A DNA stretch of 64,000 nt from Squalus acanthias (Eukaryota): NCBI GenBank assembly GCA_030390025.1, contig CM059431.1, forward strand, positions 138,572,001-138,636,000, read 5' to 3'. Below are positions 22,291 through 44,739 of this stretch, in pieces. Made by a program: the position numbers and the translations under genes. The notes under the pieces are model-generated. The model was given only the letters and a program-made list of their open reading frames with translations, was not told the origin of the DNA and ran no database searches. Each line of letters begins with the position of its first letter. The first letter of the stretch is position 1.

Positions 22291-22700
22291 TCCCCAAACT
22301 CACCCGCACCATCGCCGCCCTCTGATCCGCCGCTCCTCAGTCCGGTTTCCAGCGGTTCCTCCGCTATTTTATCTCAGCAACGGTTTCTTCCTCAACCGAA
22401 TTTGACATAATCCGGAGACTGGGGAGGGGTGGGACAGCACCGAGCATGCGCACTACAATCACAGTGTCCAATCACTGAGCTCGTCTCTTCTATTGGCTGC
22501 CACTCCTAGATTGACAGCCGCTTCCACCAATCGGAGCCCTGTCCGCCAGAGAGCCCCGCCCACTGTGGGAAAGGGTTAATGTCGGCACGTGGTCACGTGG
22601 ATCCTGATTCCGCGTGGCAGTGAAACCGCCCCTGCGCGAGCCAGGCAGCGCGCAAGATTCGTCATAGCCCCGCGGGTCCGCTCCCAGTGCGCCTGCGCCG
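22290..22700 (-). promoter_or_regulatory. CpG-island promoter and probable non-coding first exon facing the left NLR-like paralog
   Basis: CpG-rich; three CCAAT/ATTGG boxes, GC box (ccccgccc), two CACGTG E-boxes, NRF1-like gcatgcgc and tgcgcctgcgc; minus-strand donor gatggtgcgg|GTGAGT near 22303. The link to the gene is inferred. Confidence 0.65.
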
Positions 22701-22717
22701 TACTCATCGCTCACTTT

Positions 22718-22910
22718 CAGTGCTGGTACTGGTCCCACTCCTGCAGTATTAACAGTGAGCCTTATCTCACAGCTCTGGTGAATCCCTCACTCTGTCAGTG
22801 CTGGTACTGGACCCACTCCTGCAGTATGAACAGTGAGTCTTATCTCACAGCACTGGTGAATCCCTCACTCTGTCAGTGCTGGTACTGGTCCCACTCCTGC
22901 AGTATTAACA
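22718..22910 (+). repeat. 78-bp minisatellite (about 2.5 units), interrupted; the third unit is completed at 44685-44738
   Basis: Units start at 22718, 22796 and 22874 (cagtgctggtactggtcccactcctgcagtattaacagtgagccttatctcacagc...). Confidence 0.92.
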
Positions 22911-22961
22911 AAAATGAGAGTCGCACAACACCAGGTTATAGTCCAACAGATTTATTTAATT

Positions 22962-23000
22962 TTACAAGCTTTCGGAGCAGTTCGCTCCTTCGTCAGGTAA
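22962..23000 (-). ncRNA. Identical hammerhead motif on the opposite strand (mirror arm of the palindrome)
   Basis: Exact reverse complement of 23008-23046. Confidence 0.78.
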
Positions 23001-23007
23001 GCTAAAC

Positions 23008-23046
23008 TTACCTGACGAAGGAGCGAACTGCTCCGAAAGCTTGTAA
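23008..23046 (+). ncRNA. Minimal type I hammerhead ribozyme motif (PLE type)
   Basis: UUAC-CUGACGA-A-GGAGC-gaacu-GCUCC-GAAA-GC-UU-GUAA: stem I UUAC/GUAA, conserved core, 5-bp stem II, palindromic AAGCUU minimal helix III. Confidence 0.8.
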
Positions 23047-23149
23047 AATTAAATAAATCTGTTGGACTATAACCTGGTGTTCATCTTTTTGGTTGGACAA
23101 ATCAAAATTTACTGTAAATCAATTAAAACTTGAAATGAAACTTAATAAA

Positions 23150-26100
23150 TCAAATTAAAATTTGAAAGTCCGGGGTGACGATGCACTCCAGTCCCCGCGG
23201 CGCCCACCGGTCGCGGAAAAACTCAAGCGTGCCGGCGGACACCGCGTGCTCCATCTCCAGGGCCACCCGGGCGCGAACATGGCCGCGGAAGAGAGGCAGG
23301 CAATCGGGCCGAACGACCCCCTCGACCGCCCGCTGCCTGGACCAATTAATGGCTTTCTTGGCCAGGCCCAGGAGCAGTCCTACGAGGAGGTCCTCCGACC
23401 TACCCGCTCCCCTCCGCACCGGGTGACCGTAGATCAGGAGCGTGGGGCTGAAGTGCAACCAGAAATTGAGGAGCAGCCCCTTCAAATAATGAAAGAGGGG
23501 CTGCAACCTCTCACACTCAACATAAATGTGATACACGGACTCCTCCAGGCCGCAAAAATGGCAAGCAGCCTGGGAGTCCGTAAACCTACTTAAAATCCTA
23601 TTGCACGGGACTGCTCCGTGCAACACCCTCCAGGCCAAGTCCCCAATAGAACAAGGGAAGACTCCCGCGTAGAGAGCCTTCCAATGGGGACCTTCGCCTC
23701 CGCCGGACGGCAGGATGGTACGCCAAGGCGTGTCCGGACGGCAGACGAAGATGGCAAAGTGGAGAGTGTGCAGGAGCAGCCCGTACAGGAAACGCCTCCG
23801 TGCGGATTGAAAGGGCACGGAGGGCATTTCTCCGAGAAGGCTCAAGTGGTGAGGCGGCGGCTCCCGAGGGAGGATTCGGGGCCGGGCGCCGATAAGGAAT
23901 TCCGTCCGAACGGGGGTCAGTTCGGACGGGATCGCCCCACGTGCTTGAGCCTCCTCGACACACCTAGTGGAGACGGGGCCCAGTGCCACTTTTAGCGACT
24001 CGATGGCTTTGACCGCGAGCCGGACGTTGACCCAAGACATGCGCCTCGCCAACTCCTCCGGCGCCATCCAGCCCGCTCCTCCGCCATCGAGCAGGTCCCC
24101 GACTCTGGTCACCTTACCGGGCACAGCCCTGCCCTCCGCCAGCCAGCCGAACCCGCGGTCGTGGAGGTGCGGATTCCTGAACAGCGGCTCCCGAAGGACG
24201 GCCGCCGCTCCTGACGGGGGAGAACTGCGCTCGGAGGCGACGCTGTTCCAAACCCATAGCAGTTCCTGGTAGAAGACAGGCAGCTCCCGCAGGCTGGCAC
24301 GCGTGCCACCCACTCTCACAAACAGGAGCTGCGTGTCGTAATTGAGGCCGTGCAGCTGGCGGAAGAAATACGTCGCCAGCGCACGCCACCTAGGAGGATT
24401 CTCCACGTACAGGTATCTCTGCAGCGTCTGAAGACGGAAAGTCGCCGCCTGGGTGCGAAGGCACACCAGCGCCTGACCGCCCTCCCTAAGCGGGAGACTC
24501 AAAACCGCGGCAGAGACCCAGTGCTTCCTTTTGTCCCAGAAGAAGTCGACGAGCTTCTTCTGCATCTTGGCGACAAACGCAGGGGGAGGGATCAAAGTGA
24601 CCAACCGGTACCACAACATGGCGGCCACCAGCTGGTTTATGACCAGCGCTCGACCCCTGTAGGACAACACTCGGAGCAGTCCTGTCCAGCGCCCTAGGCG
24701 AGCGGTGACTTTGGCCTCCAGCTCTTGCCAGTTCGCCGGCCAGGCGTCCTCGGCCGGGCTGAGGTAGACTCCCAGGTAGAGGAGGTGCGTGGTGCTCCAG
24801 GCGAAAGGCCCGAACTCCTCCGGCAGGGAGTCCACCCGCCATGGGCCCACCAGGAGTCCAGAACATTTCTCCCAGTTGATCTTGGCGGAGGATGCGTCCG
24901 AGTAAATCTGCTGGCATTCTCGCATCCTCCGCAAGTCGACGGGATCCGTGACCGCGAGGAGCACGTCATCGGCGTAAGCCGAGAGGACCACCTCCACGCC
25001 CGGCCCTTGCAGAGCCAGTCCCGTCAACCTCTTCCGCAAGAGGCGCAGGAAAGGCTCCACGCAAACGGCGTATAACTGACCGGACATGGGGCATCCCTGA
25101 CGCACCCCCCTCCCGAAGCGAAGGGGCGCCGTCAAAGACCCGTTAACTTTAATCAGACACTCCGCGGCGGCGTACAGAAGTCGGATCCGGGCGACGAAAT
25201 GCGTCCCGAACCCGAATGCGCGCAGAGTCCCGAAAAGATACTCGTGATCCACCCTGTCGAACGCCTTCTCCTGATCCAGGGAAAGGAAGGCGACCGACAG
25301 ACCAGCCCTCTGGGAATGGTGGACCAGGTCCCGGACCAGATGGATGTTATCGTGGATGCTCCGGCCCGGGACCGTGTAGGACTGGTCGGGGTGGATCATG
25401 CGGGCCAGCACGGTGCCAAGGCGAGCAGACATAGCCCTGGCGAAAATTTTGTAGTCCGTGCTGAGGAGGGAGACCGGGCGCCAGTTCTTAAGTAGGCGGA
25501 GATCGCCCTTCTTGGGCAGCAGGACGATGACCGCCCTGCGCCAAGAGAGGGGCATCTCCCCGGTCGCCAGACTTTCCCCCAGGACCCGCGCGTAGTCGTC
25601 CCCCAAGACGTCCCAGAACGCCCTGTGGAACTCCACGGTCAGCCCGTCCAGCCCCGGGGACTTGCCCCTCGAGAGCTGGCGCAGGGCGCCGGTCAGCTCC
25701 GCCAGGCTTAGCGGAGCTTCTAAATTCTCGGCGCCCTCCGGGCCGACCTTCGGCAGGTCCTCCCACAAAACTCTGCGCGCATCCTCGCTGGACGGATCCG
25801 AAGAGAACAGAGCCCCGTAATAGGCCCGGGCCTCCGCGCTGATGCCCTCCGGATCCGAGACCAGAGATCCGTCGTCGGCCAGCAGCCCCAAGAGCTGCTT
25901 ACGGACCCCCCGTCTTTTTTCCAGCGAGTAGAAGAAGGGGGAGCCGCGGTCCAGGTCCCGCAGGAACTGGATCCGCGACCTCACGTACGCGCCTCGGGAC
26001 CCGACCAGCTGCAGGTCCTTCAGCGCGCCCTTCTTCTCTTCGTACACCTTCCGCAGGGCCGGGTCCTCGACGACCTGACCGAGACGGGACTCCAGGTCGA

Positions 26101-27049
26101 GCACTTCTTTCTCCAATCGCCCGACCCGGGCCTCCCGCCTCTTGGTCGACCCCTTCGCGTACTCCTGACAGAAGACGCGGACGTGAGCCTTGCCCACGTC
26201 CCACCATAGCCTCAAGGAGGGGAAGCCTCCCCGCTTCCTTCTCCAGTCGGCCCAGAACCGGCGAAACGAATCCCGGAACCGCGCGTCCTCCAGCAGCAGG
26301 TTGTTAAAATGCCAGTACGCGGACCCCCCCCGCGCGCGCAGCGGAGCGAGCTCCGCCCACACCAGGTGGTGGTCCGTGCACGGCACCGGCCGCATGGAAG
26401 CCGCCGGAACGCAGGAGACGTACGCCCGGGAAATGTAAAGGCGGTCGATTCTGGACCTTCCTCCTCCAGACCTCACGCTCGTGAAGGCGCTGGAGTCGGG
26501 ATGGAGATTTCGCCAGACGTCCACCAAGTCGAAGGACCCGACCAGGTCCCGCAACTTCTCCATCGCCGCCGGGCTTCGCGGGGGACCCGACCGGTCCCGC
26601 GCCTCGAGGGTACAATTGAAATCCCCCCCGAGGATGACGCACTCGCCCACGTCGATGGAGCCCAGAAGAGCGGACACTTCTCCGAAGAAGCGCACTTGCT
26701 GCGCACCGGTCCGGGGGGCGTACACGTTCACTAAATGGAGCGGCACGCCTCCCAGGCGAACAGTGACCTGGAGCAAGCGGCCCGGCACGTGCTCCTTGAC
26801 CCTCAAGATCTCCGGCTGAAAATGCGGGGCCAGCAAGACAGCCACCCCGCAGGAATTGTTGGAGAGGTGACTCATGCTGACCCCTCCTTGCCACTCCAGG
26901 AGCCACGTGGCCTCGTCTCCCGGAACGGTGTGGGTTTCTTGCAGGAAGCACACCGCATATTTCCCGTCCCGAAGGACCGAGAAGTTATTGAATCTACGGC
27001 GCGCCTCCCTGCTGCCGTTGATGTTGAGGCTGGCTATGGTTATCTTCAT
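23150..27049 (-). CDS. Tx1 ORF2 copy 1: APE endonuclease, reverse transcriptase, C-terminal CCHC; 1299 aa from ATG, intact
   Basis: MKITIASLNING, FLQETH, ILGGDFN, SRIDRLY, TDHHLV; KSPGLDG, NWRPVSLL, LDQEKAFD, GVRQGCPMS, YADD; CHFCGLEESVYHIYVEC. Confidence 0.97.
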   Translation of the reverse strand: MKITIASLNINGSREARRRFNNFSVLRDGKYAVCFLQETHTVPGDEATWLLEWQGGVSMSHLSNNSCGVAVLLAPHFQPEILRVKEHVPGRLLQVTVRLGGVPLHLVNVYAPRTGAQQVRFFGEVSALLGSIDVGECVILGGDFNCTLEARDRSGPPRSPAAMEKLRDLVGSFDLVDVWRNLHPDSSAFTSVRSGGGRSRIDRLYISRAYVSCVPAASMRPVPCTDHHLVWAELAPLRARGGSAYWHFNNLLLEDARFRDSFRRFWADWRRKRGGFPSLRLWWDVGKAHVRVFCQEYAKGSTKRREARVGRLEKEVLDLESRLGQVVEDPALRKVYEEKKGALKDLQLVGSRGAYVRSRIQFLRDLDRGSPFFYSLEKRRGVRKQLLGLLADDGSLVSDPEGISAEARAYYGALFSSDPSSEDARRVLWEDLPKVGPEGAENLEAPLSLAELTGALRQLSRGKSPGLDGLTVEFHRAFWDVLGDDYARVLGESLATGEMPLSWRRAVIVLLPKKGDLRLLKNWRPVSLLSTDYKIFARAMSARLGTVLARMIHPDQSYTVPGRSIHDNIHLVRDLVHHSQRAGLSVAFLSLDQEKAFDRVDHEYLFGTLRAFGFGTHFVARIRLLYAAAECLIKVNGSLTAPLRFGRGVRQGCPMSGQLYAVCVEPFLRLLRKRLTGLALQGPGVEVVLSAYADDVLLAVTDPVDLRRMRECQQIYSDASSAKINWEKCSGLLVGPWRVDSLPEEFGPFAWSTTHLLYLGVYLSPAEDAWPANWQELEAKVTARLGRWTGLLRVLSYRGRALVINQLVAAMLWYRLVTLIPPPAFVAKMQKKLVDFFWDKRKHWVSAAVLSLPLREGGQALVCLRTQAATFRLQTLQRYLYVENPPRWRALATYFFRQLHGLNYDTQLLFVRVGGTRASLRELPVFYQELLWVWNSVASERSSPPSGAAAVLREPLFRNPHLHDRGFGWLAEGRAVPGKVTRVGDLLDGGGAGWMAPEELARRMSWVNVRLAVKAIESLKVALGPVSTRCVEEAQARGAIPSELTPVRTEFLIGARPRILPREPPPHHLSLLGEMPSVPFQSARRRFLYGLLLHTLHFAIFVCRPDTPWRTILPSGGGEGPHWKALYAGVFPCSIGDLAWRVLHGAVPCNRILSRFTDSQAACHFCGLEESVYHIYVECERLQPLFHYLKGLLLNFWLHFSPTLLIYGHPVRRGAGRSEDLLVGLLLGLAKKAINWSRQRAVEGVVRPDCLPLFRGHVRARVALEMEHAVSAGTLEFFRDRWAPRGLECIVTPDFQILI

Positions 27050-27074
27050 CTCAGAAGCATAGTGCAACCTCTAC

Positions 27075-29223
27075 CTAACGGAGGGGAGGGAGCGCGGTCA
27101 CTGACGACCGCCACTCCCTCAGCAGCCCAGTGTGGAAACTCTTGAGCCGACGCAGCTCGAGCCGGCCAACGTCCTTGTCCGCGCCCATGAATTTAACGGC
27201 GGCGCGGACGGACACGACGAGCAGCGCCAGCTCCGACCACTTGTCGAGGGCCAGCCGGATCTTCTTGTGACGACCCTGGCTCACGGCCATAAAATCCCGG
27301 AGTTCCCCTACGGGGATGAGGGGAGAGTCGGTGAAGGGCACGAGGGCGTCCATCGCCTCGCTGCCGATGGACTCCAAATCGTCCTCGTTGCCCAACACCG
27401 AGTCCCCGTCCTCCTCCGGGAGGTCGTCACCGGCGGCCAACCCGTCCGTCACACGGAGTGCAGCGAACGGCTCGGCCGCACCGGCCGGCCCCGCCTCCGT
27501 CACGATCCCACCCCCAGGATCGGTGGCAGAGGAGTCCACCCTGGGCTCCTTCAGGGGCGCCAGGCCAGGAGGCGGCGGCGGTTCGGGGCCCCCCCCCCGC
27601 CTCAGGCGCCGGAGCGACCGGAGAAACCGGGGAGAAAATAATCCCAAATTCCTCCAGCACGTCCGGCGCCAACAACAGAGACGGAGTCAGGGGGCTTTCC
27701 GTCTCCCCGCCACCAACCTCCGACCCAGCGGGCCGGGGACTGCTACACTCCTCCACCAGGTCGAGCAGTCCCTGGGAGATATCTGGATTGTAAAAGGCGG
27801 GCACGGCTTCAGCCTCTTTGGCCTCGCCCGCCCCAGTCCCCAGGACGCCCGACCCGGCGAGGAGCAACGGTTCCGGTTCTACACTTCCCCCCGCGGGTTG
27901 TTCCGCGCCCCCCCCCACGGGCAGGGTCTCTACCCCATCCCCGGGAGGCACAGGTCGGACAGACTCGGCTGTCTCACCCTCCCGAGGGACAGACGACCCC
28001 TGCCGATCGCGCGCGACGATGACGGTGGTGGGGTGGGGCGCAGCACCCGCGGCGGGCGACTGCCCCCCTTTTGCGGAGGGACCTTCCTCCTCGCAGTCCT
28101 CCTGCTGGGGGCGGAGCTTTCTTTTTAACAAGTTGGGGCCCGGAGAGGGGGAGGCCTCCATGTCTGATGGGGCCTCCCTCTCTGCCCCTTTCCGACGACT
28201 GGGTTTCTTGGGCCCCTCGGGCCCGAGCCCGGCCGCAGGTCTTGATTCAGCTGCCTCAGCAGTTGCGGTCACGGTCACGGGCCCGGGCACGAGGACCCCC
28301 CCAGTCTCATGCGTCCCAACCAACTCCGCGATATACTCGGGCGTGAGTTCGGTCAACTCCGATGTTTCCTCCGCGAGGGGATCCGCCCTTAGATGTTTAT
28401 TTTACCTACGCGCCTTCCTTCCCCCCGGACGCTCTCCTTCCTCCCCGCCGGAGGCCGTGGTGGTGTTGGCCTCCGATTTCGACCGCGCATCCGTCGCCGT
28501 CGACGCGCGGACAGTATCAGGGGGAGGGGGGGCGGCGGCGCCAACCCTGGCCGCGCCAGGTGTCGTGGCGGCCTTGGAGGCGGGGCAGTTTTTGCGGACG
28601 TGCCCCACCTCCTTACAGGCGTAGCACCGCACGCCGTCCGAGGTCCAGAAGACGCGGTGGGCGGTCCCCCCGTGGAGCACCGTGAACGCGCCGTCCGCGT
28701 CCTCCTCCCGCGCCAGCCGGACGAAAAGCTGGCGCCGGAAGGAGAAGACGTGCCGAAGGCTGGCTTCCCGGAAGCCGAGCGGGATGGGTGTGATCCCCGA
28801 CCTCACCTCCCCCAGTTGACGTAGGTGGGGGAGGAGGAGCTCACCCGGAACAAAGGGCGGGACGTTGGAAACCACAATCCTTTGCGCGGTGGCCTCAAGG
28901 GGGTCCACCGGCAGGAAGGTCCCGCCCACGGTGAGCCCCTTCTCGATGGCCAGGGACACCGCCCGCTCCGACCCCAGGAAGAACACAGCCTTGCCGTACA
29001 TTTTAGAGGCGGCGACGATGGCTGAAGGGCCGACAACCCCAGCCATGGCTTTAACGCACGCCTCTATAGTCATGTTGGGGTGAGTGTAGCTCTTGACCCC
29101 ATTCTTCCTCGTAAGGAGGGTAAAAGGTGACGGGGTAACAGGAGGACTCGTGGCTGCGGCCGCGGCTGCCACGCTCGCATACGTCCTCGCTGCCCCCGCC
29201 ACCGACCAAGATGTACTCGCCAT
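27075..29223 (-). pseudogene. Tx1 ORF1 copy 1 (RRM-like region, zinc knuckle, long low-complexity tail), frameshifted
   Basis: MAST..., RIVVSNVPPFV, SFRRQLFV, CYACKEVGHVRKNC. Frame breaks near 28400 and near 27570-27600. Confidence 0.88.
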
Positions 29224-30333
29224 AATGGAGGGTTCTTTAAGGGCTACACTCACCCCAAGTCACAGGCCTGAAGGTGTTAATGGCCTCGGTTTTTTTGTTT
29301 TAGTTTTCCCCTGAGCAGAGGGAGCTCTTAAATTGAAGGCACACCTCTCCCTTTATATGAATTAATTGGGAGAGGGGCCTTCTCCCCTCTGCTCAATGGG
29401 TACTTAATAAAAAGATAATGAGGTGCCTCTTAGAGAGAGAGGCAGAGAGAGACAAGAGACAAAGAGAGAGAGAGAGGGGGGTGGGAAGGAGGGAAGCCGC
29501 AAGGGCAGGGTCGCCACTCAGGATGGTGGGTGGGTGGGTGTTGGCAGGGGGGTGCACTCTCCGATGTAATAAAAGTCTTTGGTGGTGGTCTTCTGGTGGG
29601 GGGAGAAGATGTCTTCACCTGGGATAGCTGGAGACGCCCAGGCTCAGTCCTGCACCAGGTCTTAACGATGCCCAATAAGATTAAATTAATTGGGGAACTT
29701 CACCTAGGCAGCTCCAGCTGTCCCAGGTCAGGCAATGGGAAAGGGGTGTTTAATATGGTGTGTGCGGCCTAGCTTTTACAGAAGCCACACACACTCACAC
29801 ACACACCCCTTAGATGTTCCGGCCTTCTTCTTTTCTTCTTTCCTCCTCCCACCTACAAAACAAAGTCTCTGGGAGAGTGCACCAGAATCACACCCACCTG
29901 TAGCTTTGTTCTTTCCTTCCTTCTTCCTTCCAAACAGATGATGTTTGTTGGTGATGTTTTTCTCCCCTCTCTCCCTCTCCTAAAATGGAGGCCAATTGAG
30001 GAGGCAGTGTGGAAAGGCCTCTCCTCTGTTGTTAATGGCCTTGGCCTTCTTTTCTTTTCTTTCTCCTCTCCTGTCCTCTCTCTCCAGGCACCTCAGTAGT
30101 GGTTGTTGGTTGTTGGTGGTGGTCTGCTGTCTGGTCTCCTTCTCCTTCTCCTCTTCCTGGTCACAGAGACCACCACTCTGCTGCTGCTGCTGCTGCTGCT
30201 CCCCACAAGCTTGTGATTTCAAATAAAGCTGTTGGACTATAACCTGGTGTTGATCTTTTTGGTTGGACAAATCAGGTTGAACAAATCAAAATTTACTGTA
30301 AATCAATTAAAACTTGAAATGAAACTTAATAAA

Positions 30334-33300
30334 TCAAATTAAAATTTGAAAGTCCGGGGTGACGATGCAATCCAGTCCCCGCGGCGCCCACCGGTCGCGG
30401 AAAAACTCAAGCGTGCCGGCGGACACCGCGTGCTCCATCTCCAGGGCCACCCGGGCGCGAACATGGCCGCGGAAGAGAGGCAGGCAATCGGGCCGAACGA
30501 CCCCCTCGACCGCCCGCTGCCTGGACCAATTAATGGCTTTCTTGGCCAGGCCCAGGAGCAGTCCTACGAGGAGGTCCTCCGACCTACCCGCTCCCCTCCG
30601 CACCGGGTGACCGTAGATCAGGAGCGTGGGGCTGAAGTGCAACCAGAAATTGAGGAGCAGCCCCTTCAAATAATGAAAGAGGGGCTGCAACCTCTCACAC
30701 TCAATATAAATGTGATAGACGGACTCCTCCAGGCCGCAGAAATGGCAAGCAGCCTGGGAGTCCGTAAACCTACTTAAAATCCTATTGCACGGGACTGCTC
30801 CGTGCAACACCCTCCAGGCCAAGTCCCCAATAGAACAAGGGAAGACTCCCGCGTAGAGAGCCTTCCAATGGGGACCTTCGCCTCCGCCGGACGGCAGGAT
30901 GGTACGCCAAGGCGTGTCCGGACGGCAGACGAAGATGGCAAAGTGGAGAGTGTGCAGGAGCAGCCCGTACAGGAAACGCCTCCGTGCGGATTGAAAGGGC
31001 ACGGAGGGCATTTCTCCGAGAAGGCTCAAGTGGTGAGGCGGCGGCTCCCGAGGGAGGATTCGGGGCCGGGCGCCGATAAGGAATTCCGTCCGAACGGGGG
31101 TCAGTTCGGACGGGATCGCCCCACGTGCTTGAGCCTCCTCGACACACCTAGTGGAGACGGGGCCCAGTGCCACTTTTAGCGACTCGATGGCTTTGACCGC
31201 GAGCCGGACGTTGACCCAGGACATGCGCCTCGCCAACTCCTCCGGCGCCATCCAGCCCGCTCCTCCGCCATCGAGCAGGTCCCCGACTCTGGTCACCTTA
31301 CCGGGCACAGCCCTGCCCTCCGCCAGCCAGCCGAACCCGCGGTCGTGGAGGTGCGGATTCCTGAACAGCGGCTCCCGAAGGACGGCCGCCGCTCCTGACG
31401 GGGGAGAACTGCGCTCGGAGGCGACGCTGTTCCAAACCCATAGCAGTTCCTGGTAGAAGACAGGCAGCTCCCGCAGGCTGGCACGCGTGCCACCCACTCT
31501 CACAAACAGGAGCTGCGTGTCGTAATTGAGGCCGTGCAGCTGGCGGAAGAAATACGTCGCCAGCGCACGCCACCTAGGAGGATTCTCTACGTACAGGTAT
31601 CTCTGCAGCGTCTGAAGACGGAAAGTCGCCGCCTGGGTGCGAAGGCACACCAGCGCCTGACCGCCCTCGCTAAGCGGGAGACTCAAAACTGCGGCAGAGA
31701 CCCAGTGCTTCCTTTTGTCCCGGAAGAAGTCGACGAGCTTCTTCTGCATCTTGGCGACAAACGCAGGGGGAGGGATCAAAGTGATCAACCGGTACCACAA
31801 CATGGCGGCCACCAGCTGGTTTATGACCAGCGCTCGACCCCTGTAGGACAACACTCGGAGCAGTCCTGTCCAGCGTCCTAGGCGAGCGGTGACTTTGGCC
31901 TCCAGCTCTTGCCAGTTCGCCGGCCAGGCGTCCTCGGCCGGGCTGAGGTAGACTCCCAGGTAGAGGAGGTGCGTGGTGCTCCAGGCGAAAGGCCCGAACT
32001 CCTCCGGCAGGGAGTCCACCCGCCATGGGCCCACCAGGAGTCCAGAACATTTCTCCCAGTTGATCTTGGCGGAGGATGCGTCCGAGTAAATCTGCTGGCA
32101 TTCTCGCATCCTCCGCAAGTCGACGGGATCCGTGACCGCGAGGAGCACGTCATCGGCGTAAGCCGAGAGGACCACCTCCACGCCCGGCCCTTGCAGAGCC
32201 AGTCCCGTCAACCTCTTCCGCAAGAGGCGCAGGAAAGGCTCCACGCAAACGGCGTATAACTGACCGGACATGGGGCATCCCTGACGCACCCCCCTCCCGA
32301 AGCGAAGGGGCGCCGTCAAAGACCCGTTAACTTTAATCAGACACTCCGCGGCGGCGTACAGAAGTCGGATCCGGGCGACGAAATGCGTCCCGAACCCGAA
32401 TGCGCGCAGAGTCCCGAAAAGATACTCGTGATCCACCCTGTCGAACGCCTTCTCCTGATCCAGGGAAAGGAAGGCGACCGACAGACCAGCCCTCTGGGAA
32501 TGGTGGACCAGGTCCCGGACCAGATGGATGTTATCGTGGATGCTCCGGCCCGGGACCGTGTAGGACTGGTCGGGGTGGATCATGCGGGCCAGCACGGTGC
32601 CAAGGCGAGCAGACATAGCCCTGGCGAAAATTTTGTAGTCCGTGCTGAGGAGGGAGACCGGGCGCCAGTTCTTAAGTAGGCGGAGATCGCCCTTCTTGGG
32701 CAGCAGGACGATGACCGCCCTGCGCCAAGAGAGGGGCATCTCCCCGGTCGCCAGACTTTCCCCCAGGACCCGCGCGTAGTCGTCCCCCAAGACGTCCCAG
32801 AACGCCCTGTGGAACTCCACGGTCAGCCCGTCCAGCCCCGGGGACTTGCCCCTCGAGAGCTGGCGCAGGGCGCCGGTCAGCTCCGCCAGGCTTAGCGGAG
32901 CTTCTAAATTCTCGGCGCCCTCCGGGCCGACCTTCGGCAGGTCCTCCCACAAAACTCTGCGCGCATCCTCGCTGGACGGATCCGAAGAGAACAGAGCCCC
33001 GTAATAGGCCCGGGCCTCCGCGCTGATGCCCTCCGGATCCGAGACCAGAGATCCGTCGTCGGCCAGCAGCCCCAAGAGCTGCTTACGGACCCCCCGTCTT
33101 TTTTCCAGCGAGTAGAAGAAGGGGGAGCCGCGGTCCAGGTCCCGCAGGAACTGGATCCGCGACCTCACGTACGCGCCTCGGGACCCGACCAGCTGCAGGT
33201 CCTTCAGCGCGCCCTTCTTCTCTTCGTACACCTTCCGCAGGGCCGGGTCCTCGACGACTTGACCGAGACGGGACTCCAGGTCGAGCACTTCTTTCTCCAA

Positions 33301-34233: not shown

Positions 34234-34258
34234 CTCAGAAGCATAGTGCAACCTCTAC

Positions 34259-36414: not shown

Positions 36415-37509
36415 AATGGAGGGTTCTTTAAGGGCTACACTCACCCCAAGTCACAGGCCTGAAGGTGTTAATGGCCTCGGTTTTTTTGTTTTAGTTTTCC
36501 CCTGAGCAGAGGGAGCTCTTAAATTGAAGGCACACCTCTCCCTTTATATGAATTAATTGGGAGAGGGGCCTTCTCCCCTCTGCTCAATGGGTACTTAATA
36601 AAAGTAAATTGAGGTGCCTCTTAGAGAGAGAGGCAGAGAGAGACAAGAGACAAAGAGAGAGAGAGAGGGGGTGGGAAGGAGGGAAGCCGCAAGGGCAGGG
36701 TCGCCACTCAGGATGGTGGGTGGGTGGGTGTTGGCAGGGGGGTGCACTCTCCGATGTAATAAAAGTCTTTGGTGGTGGTCTTCTGGTGGGGGGAGAAGAT
36801 GTCTTCACCTGGGATAGCTGGAGATGCCCAGGCTCAGTCCTGCACCAGGTCTTAACGATGCCCAATAAGATTAAATTAATTGGGGAACTTCACCTAGGCA
36901 GCTCCAGCTGTCCCAGGTCAGGCAATGGGAAAGGGGTGTTTAATATGGTGTGTGCGGCCTAGCTTTTACAGAAGCCACACACACTCACACACACACCCCT
37001 TAGATGTTCCGGCCTTCTTCTTTTCTTCTTTCCTCCCCCACCTACAAAACAAAGTCTCTGGGAGAGTGCACCAGAATCACACCCACCTGTAGCTTGTTCT
37101 TTCCTTCCTTCTCCTCCTTCCAAACAGATGATGTTGTTGGTGTTGTTTTCTCCCCTCTCTCCCTCTCCTAAAATGGAGGCCAATTGAGGAGGCAGTGTGG
37201 AAAGGCCTCTCCTCTGTTGTTAATGGCCTTGGCCTTCTTTCTTTCTTTCTCCTCTCCTGTCCTCTCTCTCCAGGCACCTCAGTAGTGGTTGTTGGTTGTT
37301 GGTGGTGGTCTGCTGTCTGGTCTCCTTCTCCTTCTCCTCTTCCTGGTCACAGAGACCACCACTCTGCTGCTGCTGCTCCTCGTCAGCAGCTCCGAAAGCT
37401 TGTGATTTCAAATAAAGCTGTTGGACTATAACCTGGTGTTGATCTTTTTGGTTTGACAGAACGCAAATTTACTGTAAATCAATTAAAACTTGAAATGAAA
37501 CTTAATAAA

Positions 37510-40500
37510 TCAAATTAAAATTTGAAAGTCCGGGGTGACGATGCACTCCAGTCCCCGCGGCGCCCACCGGTCGCGGAAAAACTCAAGCGTGCCGGCGGAC
37601 ACCGCGTGCTCCATCTCCAGGGCCACCCGGGCGCGAACATGGCCGCGGAAGAGAGGCAGGCAATCGGGCCGAACGACCCCCTCGACCGCCCGCTGCCTGG
37701 ACCAATTAATGGCTTTCTTGGCCAGGCCCAGGAGCAGTCCTACGAGGAGGTCCTCCGACCTACCCGCTCCCCTCCGCACCGGGTGACCGTAGATCAGGAG
37801 CGTGGGGCTGAAGTGCAACCAGAAATTGAGGAGCAGCCCCTTCAAATAATGAAAGAGGGGCTGCAACCTCTCACATTCAACATAAATGTGATAAACGGAC
37901 TCCTCCAGGCCGCAAAAATGGCAAGCAGCCTGGGAGTCCGTAAACCTACTTAAAATCCTATTGCACGGGACTGCTCCGTGCAACACCCTCCAGGCCAAGT
38001 CCCCAATAGAACAAGGGAAGACTCCCGCGTAGAGAGCCTTCCAATGGGGACCTTCGCCTCCGCCGGACGGCAGGATGGTACGCCAAGGCGTGTCCGGACG
38101 GCAGACGAAGATGGCAAAGTGGAGAGTGTGCAGGAGCAGCCCGTACAGGAAACGCCTCCGTGCGGATTGAAAGGGCACGGAGGGCATTTCTCCGAGAAGG
38201 CTCAAGTGGTGAGGCGGCGGCTCCCGAGGGAGGATTCGGGGCCGGGCGCCGATAAGGAATTCCGTCCGAACGGGGGTCAGTTCGGACGGGATCGCCCCAC
38301 GTGCTTGAGCCTCCTCGACACACCTAGTGGAGACGGGGCCCAGTGCCACTTTTAGCGACTCGATGGCTTTGACCGCGAGCCGGACGTTGACCCAAGACAT
38401 GCGCCTCGCCAACTCCTCCGGCGCCATCCAGCCCGCTCCTCCGCCATCGAGCAGGTCCCCGACTCTGGTCACCTTACCGGGCACAGCCCTGCCCTCCGCC
38501 AGCCAGCCGAACCCGCGGTCGTGGAGGTGCGGATTCCTGAACAGCGGCTCCCGAAGGACGGCCGCCGCTCCTGACGGGGGAGAACTGCGCTCGGAGGCGA
38601 CGCTGTTCCAAACCCATAGCAGTTCCTGGTAGAAGACAGGCAGCTCCCGCAGGCTGGCACGCGTGCCACCCACTCTCACAAACAGGAGCTGCGTGTCGTA
38701 ATTGAGGCCGTGCAGCTGGCGGAAGAAATACGTCGCCAGCGCACGCCACCTAGGAGGATTCTCCACGTACAGGTATCTCTGCAGCGTCTGAAGACGGAAA
38801 GTCGCCGCCTGGGTGCGAAGGCACACCAGCGCCTGACCGCCCTCCCTAAGCGGGAGACTCAAAACCGCGGCAGAGACCCAGTGCTTCCTTTTGTCCCAGA
38901 AGAAGTCGACGAGCTTCTTCTGCATCTTGGCGACAAACGCAGGGGGAGGGATCAAAGTGACCAACCGGTACCACAACATGGCGGCCACCAGCTGGTTTAT
39001 GACCAGCGCTCGACCCCTGTAGGACAACACTCGGAGCAGTCCTGTCCAGCGTCCTAGGCGAGCGGTGACTTTGGCCTCCAGCTCTTGCCAGTTCGCCGGC
39101 CAGGCGTCCTCGGCCGGGCTGAGGTAGACTCCCAGGTAGAGGAGGTGCGTGGTGCTCCAGGCGAAAGGCCCGAACTCCTCCGGCAGGGAGTCCACCCGCC
39201 ATGGGCCCACCAGGAGTCCAGAACATTTCTCCCAGTTGATCTTGGCGGAGGATGCGTCCGAGTAAATCTGCTGGCATTCTCGCATCCTCCGCAAGTCGAC
39301 GGGATCCGTGACCGCGAGGAGCACGTCATCGGCGTAAGCCGAGAGGACCACCTCCACGCCCGGCCCTTGCAGAGCCAGTCCCGTCAACCTCTTCCGCAAG
39401 AGGCGCAGGAAAGGCTCCACGCAAACGGCGTATAACTGACCGGACATGGGGCATCCCTGACGCACCCCCCTCCCGAAGCGAAGGGGCGCCGTCAAAGACC
39501 CGTTAACTTTAATGAGACACTCCGCGGCGGCGTACAGAAGTCGGATCCGGGCGACGAAATGCGTCCCGAACCCGAATGCGCGCAGAGTCCCGAAAAGATA
39601 CTCGTGATCCACCCTGTCGAACGCCTTCTCCTGATCCAGGGAAAGGAAGGCGACCGACAGACCAGCCCTCTGGGAATGGTGGACCAGGTCCCGGACCAGA
39701 TGGATGTTATCGTGGATACTCCGGCCCGGGACCGTGTAGGACTGGTCGGGGTGGATCATGCGGGCCAGCACGGTGCCAAGGCGAGCAGACATAGCCCTGG
39801 CGAAAATTTTGTAGTCCGTGCTGAGGAGGGAGACCGGGCGCCAGTTCTTAAGTAGGCGGAGATCGCCCTTCTTGGGCAGCAGGACGATGACCGCCCTGCG
39901 CCAAGAGAGGGGCATCTCCCCGGTCGCCAGACTTTCCCCCAGGACCCGCGCGTAGTCGTCCCCCAAGACGTCCCAGAACGCCCTGTGGAACTCCACGGTC
40001 AGCCCGTCCAGCCCCGGGGACTTGCCCCTCGAGAGCTGGCGCAGGGCGCCGGTCAGCTCCGCCAGGCTTAGCGGAGCTTCTAAATTCTCGGCGCCCTCCG
40101 GGCCGACCTTCGGCAGGTCCTCCCACAAAACTCTGCGCGCATCCTCGCTGGACGGATCCGAAGAGAACAGAGCCCCGTAATAGGCCCGGGCCTCCGCGCT
40201 GATGCCCTCCGGATCCGAGACCAGAGATCCGTCGTCGGCCAGCAGCCCCAAGAGCTGCTTACGGACCCCCCGTCTTTTTTCCAGCGAGTAGAAGAAGGGG
40301 GAGCCGCGGTCCAGGTCCCGCAGGAACTGGATCCGCGACCTCACGTACGCGCCTCGGGACCCGACCAGCTGCAGGTCCTTCAGCGCGCCCTTCTTCTCTT
40401 CGTACACCTTCCGCAGGGCCGGGTCCTCGACGACCTGACCGAGACGGGACTCCAGGTCGAGCACTTCTTTCTCCAATCGCCCGACCCGGGCCTCCCGCCT

Positions 40501-41409
40501 CTTGGTCGACCCCTTCGCGTACTCCTGACAGAAGACGCGGACGTGAGCCTTGCCCACGTCCCACCATAGCCTCAAGGAGGGGAAGCCTCCCCGCTTCCTT
40601 CTCCAGTCGGCCCAGAACCGGCGAAACGAATCCCGGAACCGCGCGTCCTCCAGCAGCAGGTTGTTAAAATGCCAGTACGCGGACCCCCCCCGCGCGCGCA
40701 GCGGAGCGAGCTCCGCCCACACCAGGTGGTGGTCCGTGCACGGCACCGGCCGCATGGAAGCCGCCGGAACGCAGGAGACGTACGCCCGGGAAATGTAAAG
40801 GCGGTCGATTCTGGACCTTCCTCCTCCAGACCTCACGCTCGTGAAGGCGCTGGAGTCGGGATGGAGATTTCGCCAGACGTCCACCAAGTCGAAGGACCCG
40901 ACCAGGTCCCGCAACTTCTCCATCGCCGCCGGGCTTCGCGGGGGACCCGACCGGTCCCGCGCCTCGAGGGTACAATTGAAATCCCCCCCGAGGATGACGC
41001 ACTCGCCCACGTCGATGGAGCCCAGAAGAGCGGACACTTCTCCGAAGAAGCGCACTTGCTGCGCACCGGTCCGGGGGGCGTACACGTTCACTAAATGGAG
41101 CGGCACGCCTCCCAGGCGAACAGTGACCTGGAGCAAGCGGCCCGGCACGTGCTCCTTGACCCTCAAGATCTCCGGCTGAAAATGCGGGGCCAGCAAGACA
41201 GCCACCCCGCAGGAATTGTTGGAGAGGTGACTCATGCTGACCCCTCCTTGCCACTCCAGGAGCCACGTGGCCTCGTCTCCCGGAACGGTGTGGGTTTCTT
41301 GCAGGAAGCACACCGCATATTTCCCGTCCCGAAGGACCGAGAAGTTATTGAATCTACGGCGCGCCTCCCTGCTGCCGTTGATGTTGAGGCTGGCTATGGT
41401 TATCTTCAT
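37510..41409 (-). CDS. Tx1 ORF2 copy 3, intact, 1299 aa
   Basis: Same motifs; the protein appears identical or nearly identical to copy 1. Confidence 0.97.
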   Translation of the reverse strand: MKITIASLNINGSREARRRFNNFSVLRDGKYAVCFLQETHTVPGDEATWLLEWQGGVSMSHLSNNSCGVAVLLAPHFQPEILRVKEHVPGRLLQVTVRLGGVPLHLVNVYAPRTGAQQVRFFGEVSALLGSIDVGECVILGGDFNCTLEARDRSGPPRSPAAMEKLRDLVGSFDLVDVWRNLHPDSSAFTSVRSGGGRSRIDRLYISRAYVSCVPAASMRPVPCTDHHLVWAELAPLRARGGSAYWHFNNLLLEDARFRDSFRRFWADWRRKRGGFPSLRLWWDVGKAHVRVFCQEYAKGSTKRREARVGRLEKEVLDLESRLGQVVEDPALRKVYEEKKGALKDLQLVGSRGAYVRSRIQFLRDLDRGSPFFYSLEKRRGVRKQLLGLLADDGSLVSDPEGISAEARAYYGALFSSDPSSEDARRVLWEDLPKVGPEGAENLEAPLSLAELTGALRQLSRGKSPGLDGLTVEFHRAFWDVLGDDYARVLGESLATGEMPLSWRRAVIVLLPKKGDLRLLKNWRPVSLLSTDYKIFARAMSARLGTVLARMIHPDQSYTVPGRSIHDNIHLVRDLVHHSQRAGLSVAFLSLDQEKAFDRVDHEYLFGTLRAFGFGTHFVARIRLLYAAAECLIKVNGSLTAPLRFGRGVRQGCPMSGQLYAVCVEPFLRLLRKRLTGLALQGPGVEVVLSAYADDVLLAVTDPVDLRRMRECQQIYSDASSAKINWEKCSGLLVGPWRVDSLPEEFGPFAWSTTHLLYLGVYLSPAEDAWPANWQELEAKVTARLGRWTGLLRVLSYRGRALVINQLVAAMLWYRLVTLIPPPAFVAKMQKKLVDFFWDKRKHWVSAAVLSLPLREGGQALVCLRTQAATFRLQTLQRYLYVENPPRWRALATYFFRQLHGLNYDTQLLFVRVGGTRASLRELPVFYQELLWVWNSVASERSSPPSGAAAVLREPLFRNPHLHDRGFGWLAEGRAVPGKVTRVGDLLDGGGAGWMAPEELARRMSWVNVRLAVKAIESLKVALGPVSTRCVEEAQARGAIPSELTPVRTEFLIGARPRILPREPPPHHLSLLGEMPSVPFQSARRRFLYGLLLHTLHFAIFVCRPDTPWRTILPSGGGEGPHWKALYAGVFPCSIGDLAWRVLHGAVPCNRILSRFTDSQAACHFCGLEESVYHIYVECERLQPLFHYLKGLLLNFWLHFSPTLLIYGHPVRRGAGRSEDLLVGLLLGLAKKAINWSRQRAVEGVVRPDCLPLFRGHVRARVALEMEHAVSAGTLEFFRDRWAPRGLECIVTPDFQILI

Positions 41410-41434
41410 CTCAGAAGCATAGTGCAACCTCTAC

Positions 41435-43592
41435 CTAACGGAGGGGAGGGAGGGCGGTCACTGACGACCGCCACTCCCTCAGCAGCCCAGTGTGGAACGT
41501 CTTGAGCCGACGCAGCTCGAGCCGGCCAACGTCCTTGTCCGCGCCCATGATTTTAACGGCGGCGCGGACGGACACGACGAGCAGCGCCAGCTCCGACCAC
41601 TTGTCGAGGGCCAGCCGGATCTTCTTGTGACGACCCTGGCTCACGGCCATAAAATCCCGGAGTTCCCCTACGGGGATGAGGGGAGAGTCGGTGAAGGGCA
41701 CGAGGGCGTCCATCACCTCGCTGCCGATGGACTCCAAATCGTCCTCGTTGCCCAACACCGAGTCCCCGTCCTCCTCCGGGAGGTCGTCACCGGCGGCCGA
41801 CCCGTCCGTCACACAGGGTGCAGCGAACGGCTCGGCCGCACCGGCCGGCCCCGCCTCCGTCACGATCCCACCCCCAGGATCGGTGGCAGAGGAGTCCACC
41901 CTGGGCTCCTTCAGGGGCGCCGGGCCGGGAGGCGGCGGCGGCGGTTCGGGGCCCCCCCCCGCCTCAGGCGCCGGGGCGACCGGAGAAACCGGGGAGAAAA
42001 TAATCCCAAATTCCTCCAGCACGTCCGGCGCCAACAACAGAGACGGAGTCAGGGGGCTTTCCGTCTCCCCGCCACCAACCTCCGACCCAGCGGGCTGGGG
42101 ATTGCTACACTCCTCCACCAGGTCGAGCAGTCCCTGGGAGATGTCTGGGTTATAAAAGGCGGGCTCGGCTTCAGCCTCTTTGGCCTCGCCCGCCCCAGTC
42201 CCCAGGACGCCCGACCCGGCGAGGAGCAACGGTTCAGGTTCTACATTTTCCTTCCGCGGGTTGTTCCGCGCCCCCCCCCACGGGCAGGGTCTCTTCCCCA
42301 TCCCCGGGAGGCACAGGTCGGACAGACTCGGCTGTCTCACCCTCCCGAGGGACAGACGACCCCTGCCGATCGCGCGCGACGATGACGGTGGTGGGGTGGG
42401 GCGCAGCACCCGCGGCGGGCGACTGCCCCCCTTTTGCGGAGGGATCTTCCTCCTCGCAGTCCTCCTGCTGGGGGCGGAGCTTTCTTTTTAACAAGTTGGG
42501 GCCCGGAGAGGGGGAGGCCTCCATGTCTGCTGGGGCCTCCCTCTCTGCCCCCTTCCGACGACTGGGTTTCTTGGGCCCCTCGGGCCCGAGCCCGGCCGCA
42601 GGTCTTGATTTAGCTGCCTCAGCAGTTGCGGTCACGGTCACGGGCCCGGGCACGAGGACCCCCCCAGTCTCATGCGTCCCGACCAACTCCGCGATGTACT
42701 CGGGCGTGAGTTCGGTCAATTCAGATGTTTCCTCCGCGAGGGGATCCGCCCTTATGTGTTTAGTTTTCCTACGCACCTTCCTTCCCCCCGGACGCTCTCC
42801 CTCCTCCCCGCCGGAGGCCGTGGTGGTGTTGGCCTCCGATTTCGACCGCGCATCCGTCGCCGTCGACGCGCGGACAGTATCAGGGGGAGGGGGGGCGGCG
42901 GCGCCAACCCTGGCCGCGCCAGGTGTCGTGGCGGCCTTGGAGGCGGGGCAGTTTTTGCGGACGTGCCCCACCTCCTTACAGGCGTAGCACCGCGCGCCGT
43001 CCGAGGTCCAGAAGACGCGGTGGGCGGTCCCCCCGTGGAGCACCGTGAACGCGCCATCCGCGTCCTCCTCCCGCGCCAGCCGGACGAAAAGCTGGCGCCG
43101 GAAGGAGAAGACGTGCCGAAGGCTGGCTTCCCGGAAGCCGAGCGGGATGGGTGTGATCCCCGACCTCACCTCCCCCAGTTGACGTAGGTGGGGGAGGAGG
43201 AGCTCACCCGGAACAAAGGGCGGGACGTTGGAGACCACAATCCTTTGCGCGGTGGCCTCAAGGGGGTCCACCGGCAGGAAGGTCCCGCCCACGGTGAGCC
43301 CCTTCTCGATGGCCAGGGACACCGCCCGCTCCGACCCCAGGAAGAACACAGCCTTGCCGTACATTTTAGAGGCGGCGACGATGGCTGAAGGGCCGACAAC
43401 CCCAGCCATGGCTTTAACGCACGCCTCTATAGTCATGTTGGGGTGAGTGTAGCTCTTGACCCCATTCTTCCTCGTAAGGAGGGTAAAAGGTGACGGGGTA
43501 ACAGGAGGACTCGTGGCTGCGGCCGTGGCCGCGGCTGCCACGCTCGCGTACGTCCTCGCTGCCCCCGCCACCGACGAAGATGTACTCGCCAT
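41435..43592 (-). pseudogene. Tx1 ORF1 copy 3 with a single +1 frameshift (about 718 aa if repaired)
   Basis: ORFs 42234-43622 and 41435-42409 overlap. There is one extra base in the T run at 42246-42249 relative to copy 2. Confidence 0.88.
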
Positions 43593-44628
43593 AATGGAGG
43601 GTTCTTTAAGGGCTACACTCACCCCAAGTCACAGGCCTGAAGGTGTTAATGGCCTCGGTTTTTTTTTTTGTTTCCCCTGAGCAGAGGGAGCTCTTAAATT
43701 GAAGGCACACCTCTCCCTTTAGTTGATTGAATTGGGAGAGGGGCCTTCTCCCCTCTGCTCAATGGGTACTTAATAAAAGTTAATTGAGGTGCCTCTTAGA
43801 GAGAGAGGCAGAGAGAGACAAGAGACAAAGAGAGAGAGAGAGAGGGGGGTGGGAAGGAGGGAAGCCGCAAGGGCAGGGTCGCCACTCAGGATGGTGGGTG
43901 GGTGGGTGGGTGTTGGCAGGGGGGTGCACTCTCCGATGTAATAAAAGTCTTTGGTGGTGGTCTTCTGGTGGGGGGAGAAGATGTCTTCACCTGGGATAGC
44001 TGGAGATGCCCAGGCTCAGTCCTGCACCAGGTCTTAACGATGCCCAATAAGATGAAATTAATTGGGGACTTCACCTAGGCAGCTCCAGCTGTCCCAGGTC
44101 AGGCAATGGGAAAGGGGTGTTTAATATGGTGTGTGCGGCCTAGCTTTTACAGAAGCCACACACACTCACACACACACCCCTTAGATGTTCCGGCCTTCTT
44201 CTTTTCTTCTTTCCTCCCCCCACCTACAAAACAAAGTCTCTGGGAGAGTGCCCCAGAATCACACCCACCTGTAGCTGTTCTTTCTTTCTTTCTCCCTCCT
44301 TCCAAACAGTTGATGATGTTGTGTTGTTTTCTCCCCTCTCTCCCTCTCCTAAAATGGAGGCCAATTGAGGAGGCAGTGATGGAAAAGGCCTCTCCTCTGG
44401 TGTTATTGGCCTTGGCCTTCCTTTCTTTTCTTTCTCCTCTCCTGTCCTCTCTCTCCAGGCACCTCAGTAGTTGTGGTTGTTGGTTGTTGGTGGTGGCCTG
44501 CTGTCTGGTCTGGTCTCCTTCTCCTCTTCCTGGCCACAGAGACCACCACTCTGCTGCTGCTGCTCCTTCGTCAGCAGCTCCGAAAGCTTGTGATTTCAAA
44601 TAAAGCTGTTGGACTATAACCTGGTGTT

Positions 44629-44684
44629 GTGCGACTTCTCATTTTTGTCCACCCCAGTCCAACGCCGGCATCTCCACATCATGA
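44629..44684 (+). mobile_element. Right remainder of the Penelope-type element
   Basis: gtgcgacttctcatttttgt pairs with 22908-22926 (1-nt indel), followed by the tail ccaccccagtccaacgccggcatctccacatcat and then the TSD. Confidence 0.85.
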
Positions 44685-44738
44685 GCAGTATTAACAGTGA
44701 GCCTTATCTCACAGCACTGGTGAATCCCTCACTCTGTC
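44685..44738 (+). repeat. Continuation of the interrupted 78-bp repeat unit
   Basis: gcagtattaacagtgagccttatctcacagcactggtgaatccctcactctgtc. Confidence 0.9.
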
Positions 44739-44739
44739 C

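Follow-up and report, generated by a model that had tools for sequence, protein, structure and literature searches.

A tandem array of a Tx1L-related LINE at one position in the tail of a Penelope-like element of Squalus acanthias

Introduction

Several long interspersed nuclear elements (LINEs) of the Tx1 group insert into other transposons. Tx1L of Xenopus laevis inserts into Tx1D, a non-autonomous element of the piggyBac type (PMC4494074, PMC1919474, PMC1635306); PMC4494074 describes the crocodilian Tx1-Mar as inserting preferentially into Mariner-N4_AMi, and Tx1-8_Crp and Tx1-4_AMi as inserting into specific long terminal repeat (LTR) retrotransposons. Here we describe an array of three LINEs in a 64,000-nt stretch of Squalus acanthias DNA (assembly GCA_030390025.1, contig CM059431.1, positions 138,572,001 to 138,636,000, forward strand; 'the window', in whose own numbering coordinates are given). 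The array is very probably the product of three separate insertions of a young Tx1L-lineage LINE that targets a Penelope-like element (PLE) at its 3′ tail, made by the mechanism proposed below.

For Tx1L, the target-site duplication (TSD) is put at 23 bp. Its endonuclease specificity was shown in vitro, whereas that of the window LINE is read from its junctions.

The target, too, has described relatives. Endonuclease-bearing PLEs are characterized in PMC8557442 by DKG, CCHH and GIY-YIG-like motifs and by an inverted, 5′-truncated partner copy; the same paper describes a 30–40-bp extension at one end of PLE insertions.

Results

Protein similarity places the LINE close to Tx1L

Each of the three units carries an intact second open reading frame (ORF2) of 1299 amino acids (aa) on the minus strand. 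In units 1 and 3, Pfam recognizes an apurinic/apyrimidinic endonuclease (APE) domain, Exo_endo_phos (residues 6–227, E 1.7e-11), a reverse transcriptase (RT) domain, RVT_1 (residues 512–761, E 8.5e-38), and zf-RVT (residues 1121–1181, E 4.4e-05), the last falling below Pfam's own cut-off. A protein search with ORF2 gave 346 proteins at E ≤0.001 among 7,999 scored candidates. The Xenopus laevis 'Transposon TX1 uncharacterized 149 kDa protein' (P0004) matches at 50% identity over 100% of the length, and a sea-turtle protein at 52% over 99%. In a FastTree phylogeny of 37 proteins (the window ORF2 and 36 rows chosen from 120 listed matches, mostly full-length), ORF2 falls into a five-row clade (support 98) whose other members are P0004, two turtle proteins and a protein from sturgeon; the tree lacks named L1, R1 and Keno references and so speaks to closeness to Tx1L, not to full clade placement. 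Full-length identity and clade together assign the LINE to the Tx1 lineage, as the initial annotation had proposed, and place it close to Tx1L. Its exclusion from other LINE clades rests on the high identity to Tx1L, the type member of the Tx1 clade.

Removing the array restores a hairpin

The three APE–RT LINEs follow one another head to tail, all on the minus strand, and the array reads from 44605 down to 23082. Its G+C content is 60–67%, against 41–50% in the flanks. An exact 23-mer, CTGTTGGACTATAACCTGGTGTT, marks all four junctions on the plus strand, and a fifth copy on the minus strand belongs to the other arm of a hairpin (Table 1); these are five matches in the window, against 0 expected from shuffles. 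Excision of 23082–44628 restores the hairpin, the right arm becoming the reverse complement of the left across the junction, with 94 matches and one 1-nt gap in the 95 alignment columns over the excision point. The initial annotation had reported both the shared 23-mer and the recovered hairpin arm, and both stand on these exact matches and this alignment. An 11-bp duplication, CAGTATTAACA, flanks the hairpin, which argues that both PLE arms entered as one insertion. The DNA around it is a host satellite with units of roughly 60 bp (...CCTGCAGTATTAACAGTGAGCCTTATCTCACAGC...), seen at 22700–22910 and 44686–44740.

The target is the tail of an abundant Penelope-like element

Across the 3.7-Gb assembly the 23-mer occurs about 111,000 times at ≤1 mismatch (55,668 + 55,528), often in close inverted pairs, in agreement with the earlier description of the target as a very abundant dispersed repeat. 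The flank of one LINE copy, L064, includes an ORF piece bearing KPADKGG. This piece has >10,350 candidate genomic places; the 150 that were scored are 95–98% identical to it (the query's own place 100%) and include open frames of up to 939 aa. At locus L089 the PLE ORF covers 873 aa within the locus, in an open frame of 939 aa, and is matched by Pfam RVT_1 (E 7.1e-08). Read by eye, it contains KPADKGG and, towards the C terminus, a CCHH-like motif followed by VVYLIRC...WYIGET. On the strand of this ORF, CTGACGA-A-GGGGCAGCAGCTCC-GAAA stands about 240 nt past the stop codon, and the 23-mer follows 20 nt after GAAA, about 290 nt past the stop codon. With a full PLE ORF thus placed upstream on the same strand, we identify the target, on its sequence features, as the 3′ tail of a very abundant PLE with a predicted minimal hammerhead ribozyme; the hammerhead-bearing PLE terminus named in the initial annotation was the right one.

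The predicted hammerhead core is a regular neighbour of the 23-mer. It was present in 40 of 84 distinct 23-mer contexts from sampled loci, and in every one of these 40 GAAA ends 20 nt before the 23-mer. LINE leaders are among the 44 contexts that lack the core, as are arms truncated short of it. Sequence variants retain pairing both in helix II (GGAGC/GCTCC, GGAGT/ACTCC) and in helix I (GUGA/UCAC against GUAA/UUAC). The core has one additional base ahead of helix II and a GC step behind GAAA, as in the minimal PLE hammerheads published in PMC4209133.

The LINE is antisense to the PLE. Its insertion point is reached 43 nt downstream of where the GAAA box ends and ~39 nt downstream of the predicted hammerhead cleavage site, with ~18 nt left to the PLE 3′ end in its short form; the distance of 35 bp past the hammerhead motif given earlier holds only when counted from the end of GCTTGTAA. 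The window copy of the PLE is a short hairpin in which an inverted, 5′-truncated copy adjoins a direct copy, and the architecture of its left arm agrees with the PLE description in PMC8557442. Over 30 LINE flanks the position of the hairpin apex varies, and the PLE has two alternative 3′ ends, 37 nt apart. PLE tails in the flanks L021 to L067 end in ...TCTCA(C/T)TTTT, or in the same sequence plus 37 nt ending CATCATG; in the window hairpin the left arm has the short end and the right arm the long form. The N-terminal ORF of L064, which runs in the LINE direction, raised the reading of the PLE 'tail' as a 5′ end; this was rejected, as at L089 the tail lies 3′ of the ORF. In L064 an inverted tail adjoins a 5′-truncated PLE.

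The LINE is site-specific genome-wide

The LINE is specific for this position of the PLE tail throughout the genome. An exact pattern for its 3′ end occurs at 897 places, and the 3′ end followed by AACACCAGGTT at 781; the ratio 781/897 (~0.87) is approximate, the patterns not being strictly nested, and both patterns are exact and miss diverged copies. Among the first 30 loci in genome order, 27 of 30 distinct 3′ ends run into the exact target. The remaining three comprise a PLE variant, a junction with 7–8 nt of target followed by a truncated LINE, and a non-PLE site. At the other end, 20 5′ junctions came out of a similarity search in which 40 of 1,367 candidates were scored; the upstream flank is antisense PLE tail ending GTCGCAC in 14 of them and the 3′ end of another LINE in six. 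In these samples of both element ends, whose flanks the initial annotation had proposed to tabulate genome-wide, the exact target follows 27/30 3′ ends, and 20/20 5′ junctions have either antisense PLE tail or another LINE upstream. The host PLE copies belong to different subfamilies, have arms of different lengths and apices at different positions, and lie in different surroundings, which makes the insertion sites independent.

LINE 3′ ends are 99–100% identical among the best 40 of 1,244 candidates, so the family is very young, and to this extent the earlier suggestion of recent activity is upheld. Subfamilies can be told apart by the 15–30 nt that precede the terminal AAAAAGA(T/G)(C/G), a hypervariable stretch with the forms TGATTTGTCCAACC, GCGTTCTGTCAAACC, GGGTTCAACC and a 14-nt duplication; variation extends to the last two bases of the 3′ end. 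Some LINE 3′ ends face each other on opposite strands, 140–180 bp apart (C2:164562516(+)/164562698(-), C2:164776911/164777093 and C4:152277690/152277832), which indicates that one PLE hairpin can hold a LINE in each of its arms.

The units of the array are separate insertions

Pairwise, the three units are 98.75–99.2% identical. They carry three different 3′-tail variants and different 5′ leaders, and each of these types is seen many times genome-wide. Over the last 1.5 kb, unit 3 has an exact counterpart on another contig, against 11 differences from unit 2, whose own nearest copies (8 differences) are also elsewhere in the genome. From these variants and closer relatives elsewhere, the units are separate insertions and not local duplicates. 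Among the first 100 3′-end places listed, arrays with ~7.17-kb spacing are common.

A single insertion followed by local tandem duplication, through unequal crossing-over or replication slippage on the 23-mer, would likewise yield head-to-tail units with a common junction repeat, and equal-length truncated units of 741 bp (L025), 626 bp (L036) and 2289-bp spacing (on C2) are found at other places. We nevertheless hold it improbable for the window: tail and leader variants that correspond to genome-wide subfamily types, and a unit 3 that is identical to an off-contig copy over a stretch in which it differs 11 times from its neighbour, are at odds with copying in place. The identically 5′-truncated tandem units at L025, L036 and C2:150177074-150183941 do themselves resemble local amplification rather than repeated insertion.

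Truncated copies have short duplications and full-length copies inherit a leader

The 5′-truncated copies join the target after 11–15 nt (for example GTCGCAC-AACACCAGGTTATA). At L024 a target variant is present on both sides of the LINE, establishing a true 15-nt duplication, and a contig from run X1 holds a truncated copy joined 14 nt into the 23-mer. Two off-target insertions, L033 and L061, have 10–14-nt duplications and share only AACAC beside the nick.

Full-length 5′ ends fall into two types. In type A (594 copies), 44–60 nt run in register with the PLE tail before LINE sequence begins, and the switch from leader to LINE occurs at no fewer than five different points; type B comprises 92 copies whose match to the target ends after 15 nt, at ATAG followed by CCTCAGCAGCC. 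The three units of the window belong to type A. At the 23-mers of 30229, 37418 and 44606 the resemblance to the PLE tail runs on upstream for another 22–34 nt, in a form that matches the common PLE variant GAAATCAC and not the local target AATTTTAC; the leader thus came in with the element. In three of three informative type-B copies, a variant in the 15 nt of the 5′ junction (GGTGATAG twice, GGTCATAG once) is absent from the copy's own 3′ junction; six 3′ junctions were sought, of which two (L073, L083) were not found in the stretches examined, and one pair was without a variant. This mismatch between the two ends means that the 5′ target-like sequence is inherited through RNA, at least from about position 11.

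The 23-mer could instead be taken as a true 23-bp TSD made anew at each insertion, by analogy with Tx1L. It is identical at all four junctions, and in the rest of the genome the majority of full-length copies show it complete at the 5′ junction. Such a duplication is, however, very unlikely: it accounts neither for truncated copies joined after only 11–15 nt, including the run X1 joint 14 nt in, nor for the 92 type-B copies that exit the target at ATAG/CCTCAGC, nor for similarity that continues beyond the 23-mer in a variant foreign to the local target. The 23-bp TSD suggested by analogy with Tx1L is accordingly replaced by short duplications in truncated copies and inherited leaders in full-length ones.

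Hardly credible, finally, is a composite of PLE tail, LINE and PLE tail moved whole by PLE machinery or segmental duplication: the flanks are always PLE tail, and at L081/L082 on C25 the likeness of the two upstream flanks extends far past the PLE, so that this pair looks like a segmental duplicate, as some copies will be, but the flanking PLEs differ by locus in subfamily, apex, arm length and host context, 5′ truncation combined with short duplications marks LINE copies made by target-primed reverse transcription (TPRT) of the LINE itself, the off-target insertions L033 and L061 lie outside PLEs, and about 111,000 copies of the 23-mer stand against roughly 900–1,400 LINE ends counted or proposed.

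Two further observations concern the leader and the target. A CTGACGA in the LINE leader was considered as a hammerhead or captured hairpin arm and rejected: leader variants show it to be a chance product of the junction between PLE ...GCTG and LINE ACGAAGGAG..., and the GAAA box is missing after it. At L095 (C218:91250-91750) the hairpin apex falls inside the 23-mer, leaving only ~14 nt of target after the nick; little downstream sequence is therefore needed, this length being an upper bound on the requirement.

ORF1 is interrupted in every window unit

The first open reading frame (ORF1) is broken in all three units. In unit 1 an in-frame stop is combined with a 2-nt deletion, and unit 2 has three 1-nt indels. 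In unit 3 the region holds two overlapping frames, 42237–43628 (464 aa, with a CCHC knuckle) and 41438–42487 (350 aa), the second without a Pfam match. The 350-aa frame is common to most of 116 scored genomic matches; eight of the 116 have ORF1 frames of 728–738 aa and are more divergent (83–92% identity). The Tx1L ORF1 is about 82 kDa. The abundant young subfamily could use a split ORF1 or be mobilized in trans, or the interruptions could be a recurrent homopolymer error of the assembly. With every ORF1 broken, the intact ORF2s alone are no evidence that the three window copies are autonomous. The initial annotation had taken the ORF2s as a sign of recent activity; they are indeed intact in all three units, and this does not extend to the copies as whole elements.

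Points against the proposed reading

Several results pull against the interpretation given here, beyond the limits attached above to the phylogeny and the pattern counts. The interrupted ORF1s, and the split 350-aa frame in most scored genomic copies, raise the question of where so young a family obtains its ORF1 protein. Rfam reports no hammerhead in the whole window at its gathering threshold, and at E ≤10 it returns for the hairpin region only generic hairpin matches to microRNA models and no hammerhead; similarly, Pfam detects no GIY-YIG domain in the PLE C terminus even at E ≤5. The hammerhead and GIY-YIG-like features consequently rest on motifs read against published descriptions. Two truncated copies, L048 and L058, have no recognizable duplication, and L050 is ambiguous. 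The variant test comprises only three informative pairs, and heteroduplex repair after a true 15-nt TSD could also explain its pattern.

A proposed mechanism

From the junctions, the nick made by the APE endonuclease would fall at GGTGTT^GTGCGAC on the PLE-sense strand, 43 nt beyond GAAA. The off-target sites, with AACAC beside the nick, hint at what this enzyme may recognize. The 3′ OH at the nick would prime reverse transcription of the LINE RNA by TPRT, and a cut in the other strand some 12–15 nt away would give rise to the short duplications of 5′-truncated copies.

Full-length RNAs would begin with a copy of the target, of 15 nt in the minority type and 44–60 nt in the majority type. The end of a full-length cDNA would then be the complement of the leader, and could anneal to the 3′ overhang that the cut leaves on the target, giving a seamless joint. 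As can be read directly from the sequence, this joint rebuilds GTCGCAC/AACACC... with its downstream context, and hence a fresh target; later copies could insert there, and arrays would grow. For the origin of the long leaders we can offer a speculation, namely a rare, far second-strand cut followed by a transcription start at or before the duplicated piece. Nick positions, homology-assisted 5′ joining and transcription start are all presumptive steps in this scheme. The RNA-borne, target-derived leader and the array-building that results from it go beyond the initial annotation.

It is conceivable, if doubtful, that the leader is a repeatedly acquired adaptation (of 15 to ~60 nt), in which pairing of the cDNA allows precise joining and rebuilds the target, so that a dispersed PLE tail would become a LINE array able to extend itself. 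An APE-type LINE would in this way have come to a homology-guided finishing similar to that of R2, with sequence borrowed from a second retroelement.

Features of the window and occurrence in public runs

Coordinates are collected in Table 1. At 44740–45400, adjoining the array, and in many locus flanks (L040, L057, L064) there are fragments of another, unrelated LINE, whose RT pieces have motifs such as FADDTKLGG and appear CR1/L2-like by eye.

Table 1. Positions of the LINE array, its hairpin target and the flanking host satellite in the window
Feature	Position	Strand	Basis and remarks
Left copy of 11-bp duplication CAGTATTAACA, host satellite	22900..22910	.	Sequence read; same 11-mer after right arm
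PLE hairpin, left arm: inverted, 5′-truncated PLE tail with short-form 3′ end	22911..23002	-	Read and alignment; fifth 23-mer at 22927-22949, minus strand; without LINE
PLE hairpin, right arm, inner part	23003..23081	+	Read and alignment; predicted minimal hammerhead core CTGACGA...GAAA at 23012-23038; 23-mer at 23059-23081; LINE insertion point after 23081
LINE unit 1, 3′-most in element orientation	23082..30228	-	7147 bp between 23-mers; ORF2 23150-27049, 1299 aa; short target-like 5′ leader ending at AAGCTT
23-mer between units 1 and 2	30229..30251	+	Exact match; target-like leader adjoining
LINE unit 2	30252..37417	-	7166 bp between 23-mers; ORF2 30334-34233, 1299 aa; 14-nt duplication variant in 3′ tail
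23-mer between units 2 and 3	37418..37440	+	Exact match
LINE unit 3, 5′-most	37441..44605	-	7165 bp between 23-mers; ORF2 37510-41409, 1299 aa; target-derived 5′ leader at 44572-44605
23-mer, 5′ junction of array	44606..44628	+	PLE-sense reading; LINE sense AACACCAGGTTATAGTCCAACAG
PLE hairpin, right arm, outer part	44629..44685	+	GTGCGACTTCTCATTTTT, then 37-nt PLE 'tail' extension ending CATCATGAG
Right copy of 11-bp host-satellite duplication	44686..44696	.	Sequence read
Hypervariable LINE 3′-end stretches	23082-23125, 30252-30310, 37441-37480	-	Also at genomic 3′-end places

Fourteen of 17 listed public runs hold at least half of the LINE's sampled words. In the four runs that were examined, with four organism codes, contigs align to the LINE along as much as 2.8 kb, with >99% identity; the library type is a guess ('RNA?'), the contigs are silent on transcription and RNA ends, and parts left uncovered are not evidence. 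Run depth (X1–X17) climbs steeply towards the 3′ end of the LINE, and on the PLE tail it exceeds even this level by far.

Discussion

The array adds a new class of host, PLEs, to the known Tx1 habit of nesting in transposons. The insertion site lies in the one part of the PLE that every truncated copy keeps, and a reading of that site as a safe harbour, put forward in the initial annotation, would be the standard inference for elements of this kind. With about 900 or more young copies, the family offers hundreds of independent junctions, truncated copies, rare off-targets and arrays: natural data on how an APE endonuclease finds a site of some 20 bp and on how LINE integration is completed in its second half, which is poorly understood. 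Targeted DNA insertion is one use for which site-specific LINEs are under study, and a close relative of the biochemically studied Tx1L whose target is well defined could serve this purpose. For annotation the locus carries a warning, in that arrays and hairpins can pass for long target duplications or composite elements.

No Tx1 family that targets a PLE was found in the published literature searched, a search that did not extend to Repbase or Dfam. The novelty put forward by the initial annotation would be confined to the PLE-tail target and was overstated in so far as transposon-targeting Tx1 families were already published.

Set beside R1 and R2, the window LINE shares insertion at a specific site in a multicopy target and, on the mechanism proposed here, an element RNA with target sequence that aids precise joining and, possibly, transcription that depends on the target (PMC4494074, on R2 co-transcription; PMC3414825). 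The machinery differs. R2 has a restriction-like endonuclease, and an HDV-like (hepatitis delta virus) ribozyme frees its 5′ end from the 28S co-transcript; the window LINE has an endonuclease of the APE type, and Rfam detects no ribozyme in it, either in the whole window at the gathering threshold or in the hairpin region at E ≤10. Unlike in R2, the hammerhead predicted here belongs to the target and lies on the strand opposite the LINE, and the leader matches sequence downstream of the nick, not upstream.

The target PLE resembles canonical endonuclease-bearing PLEs as described in PMC8557442 and PMC4209133, with DKG, CCHH and GIY-YIG-like motifs read by eye in its RT ORF, CUGANGA...GAAA and high copy number, an inverted, 5′-truncated copy adjoining the direct one and a 30–40-bp tail at one end. 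It departs from them in that Pfam and Rfam do not recognize its GIY-YIG and hammerhead features, respectively.

With Tx1-Mar, Tx1-8_Crp and Tx1-4_AMi, the window LINE has in common that a Tx1-clade LINE favours another transposon family. The class of target is different, and those three group with Keno in the account of PMC4494074, whereas the window LINE groups with Tx1L.

Tx1L itself is the closest parallel. The two elements have the same ORF2 architecture and lie together in one small clade, and each occupies one exact site inside another, more abundant transposon. The window LINE has an 11–15-nt duplication and an inherited, target-like 5′ leader, against a 23-bp duplication in Tx1L. The difference in hosts is direct: Tx1L resides in a DNA transposon, and the window LINE in the 3′ tail of a retroelement, the PLE.

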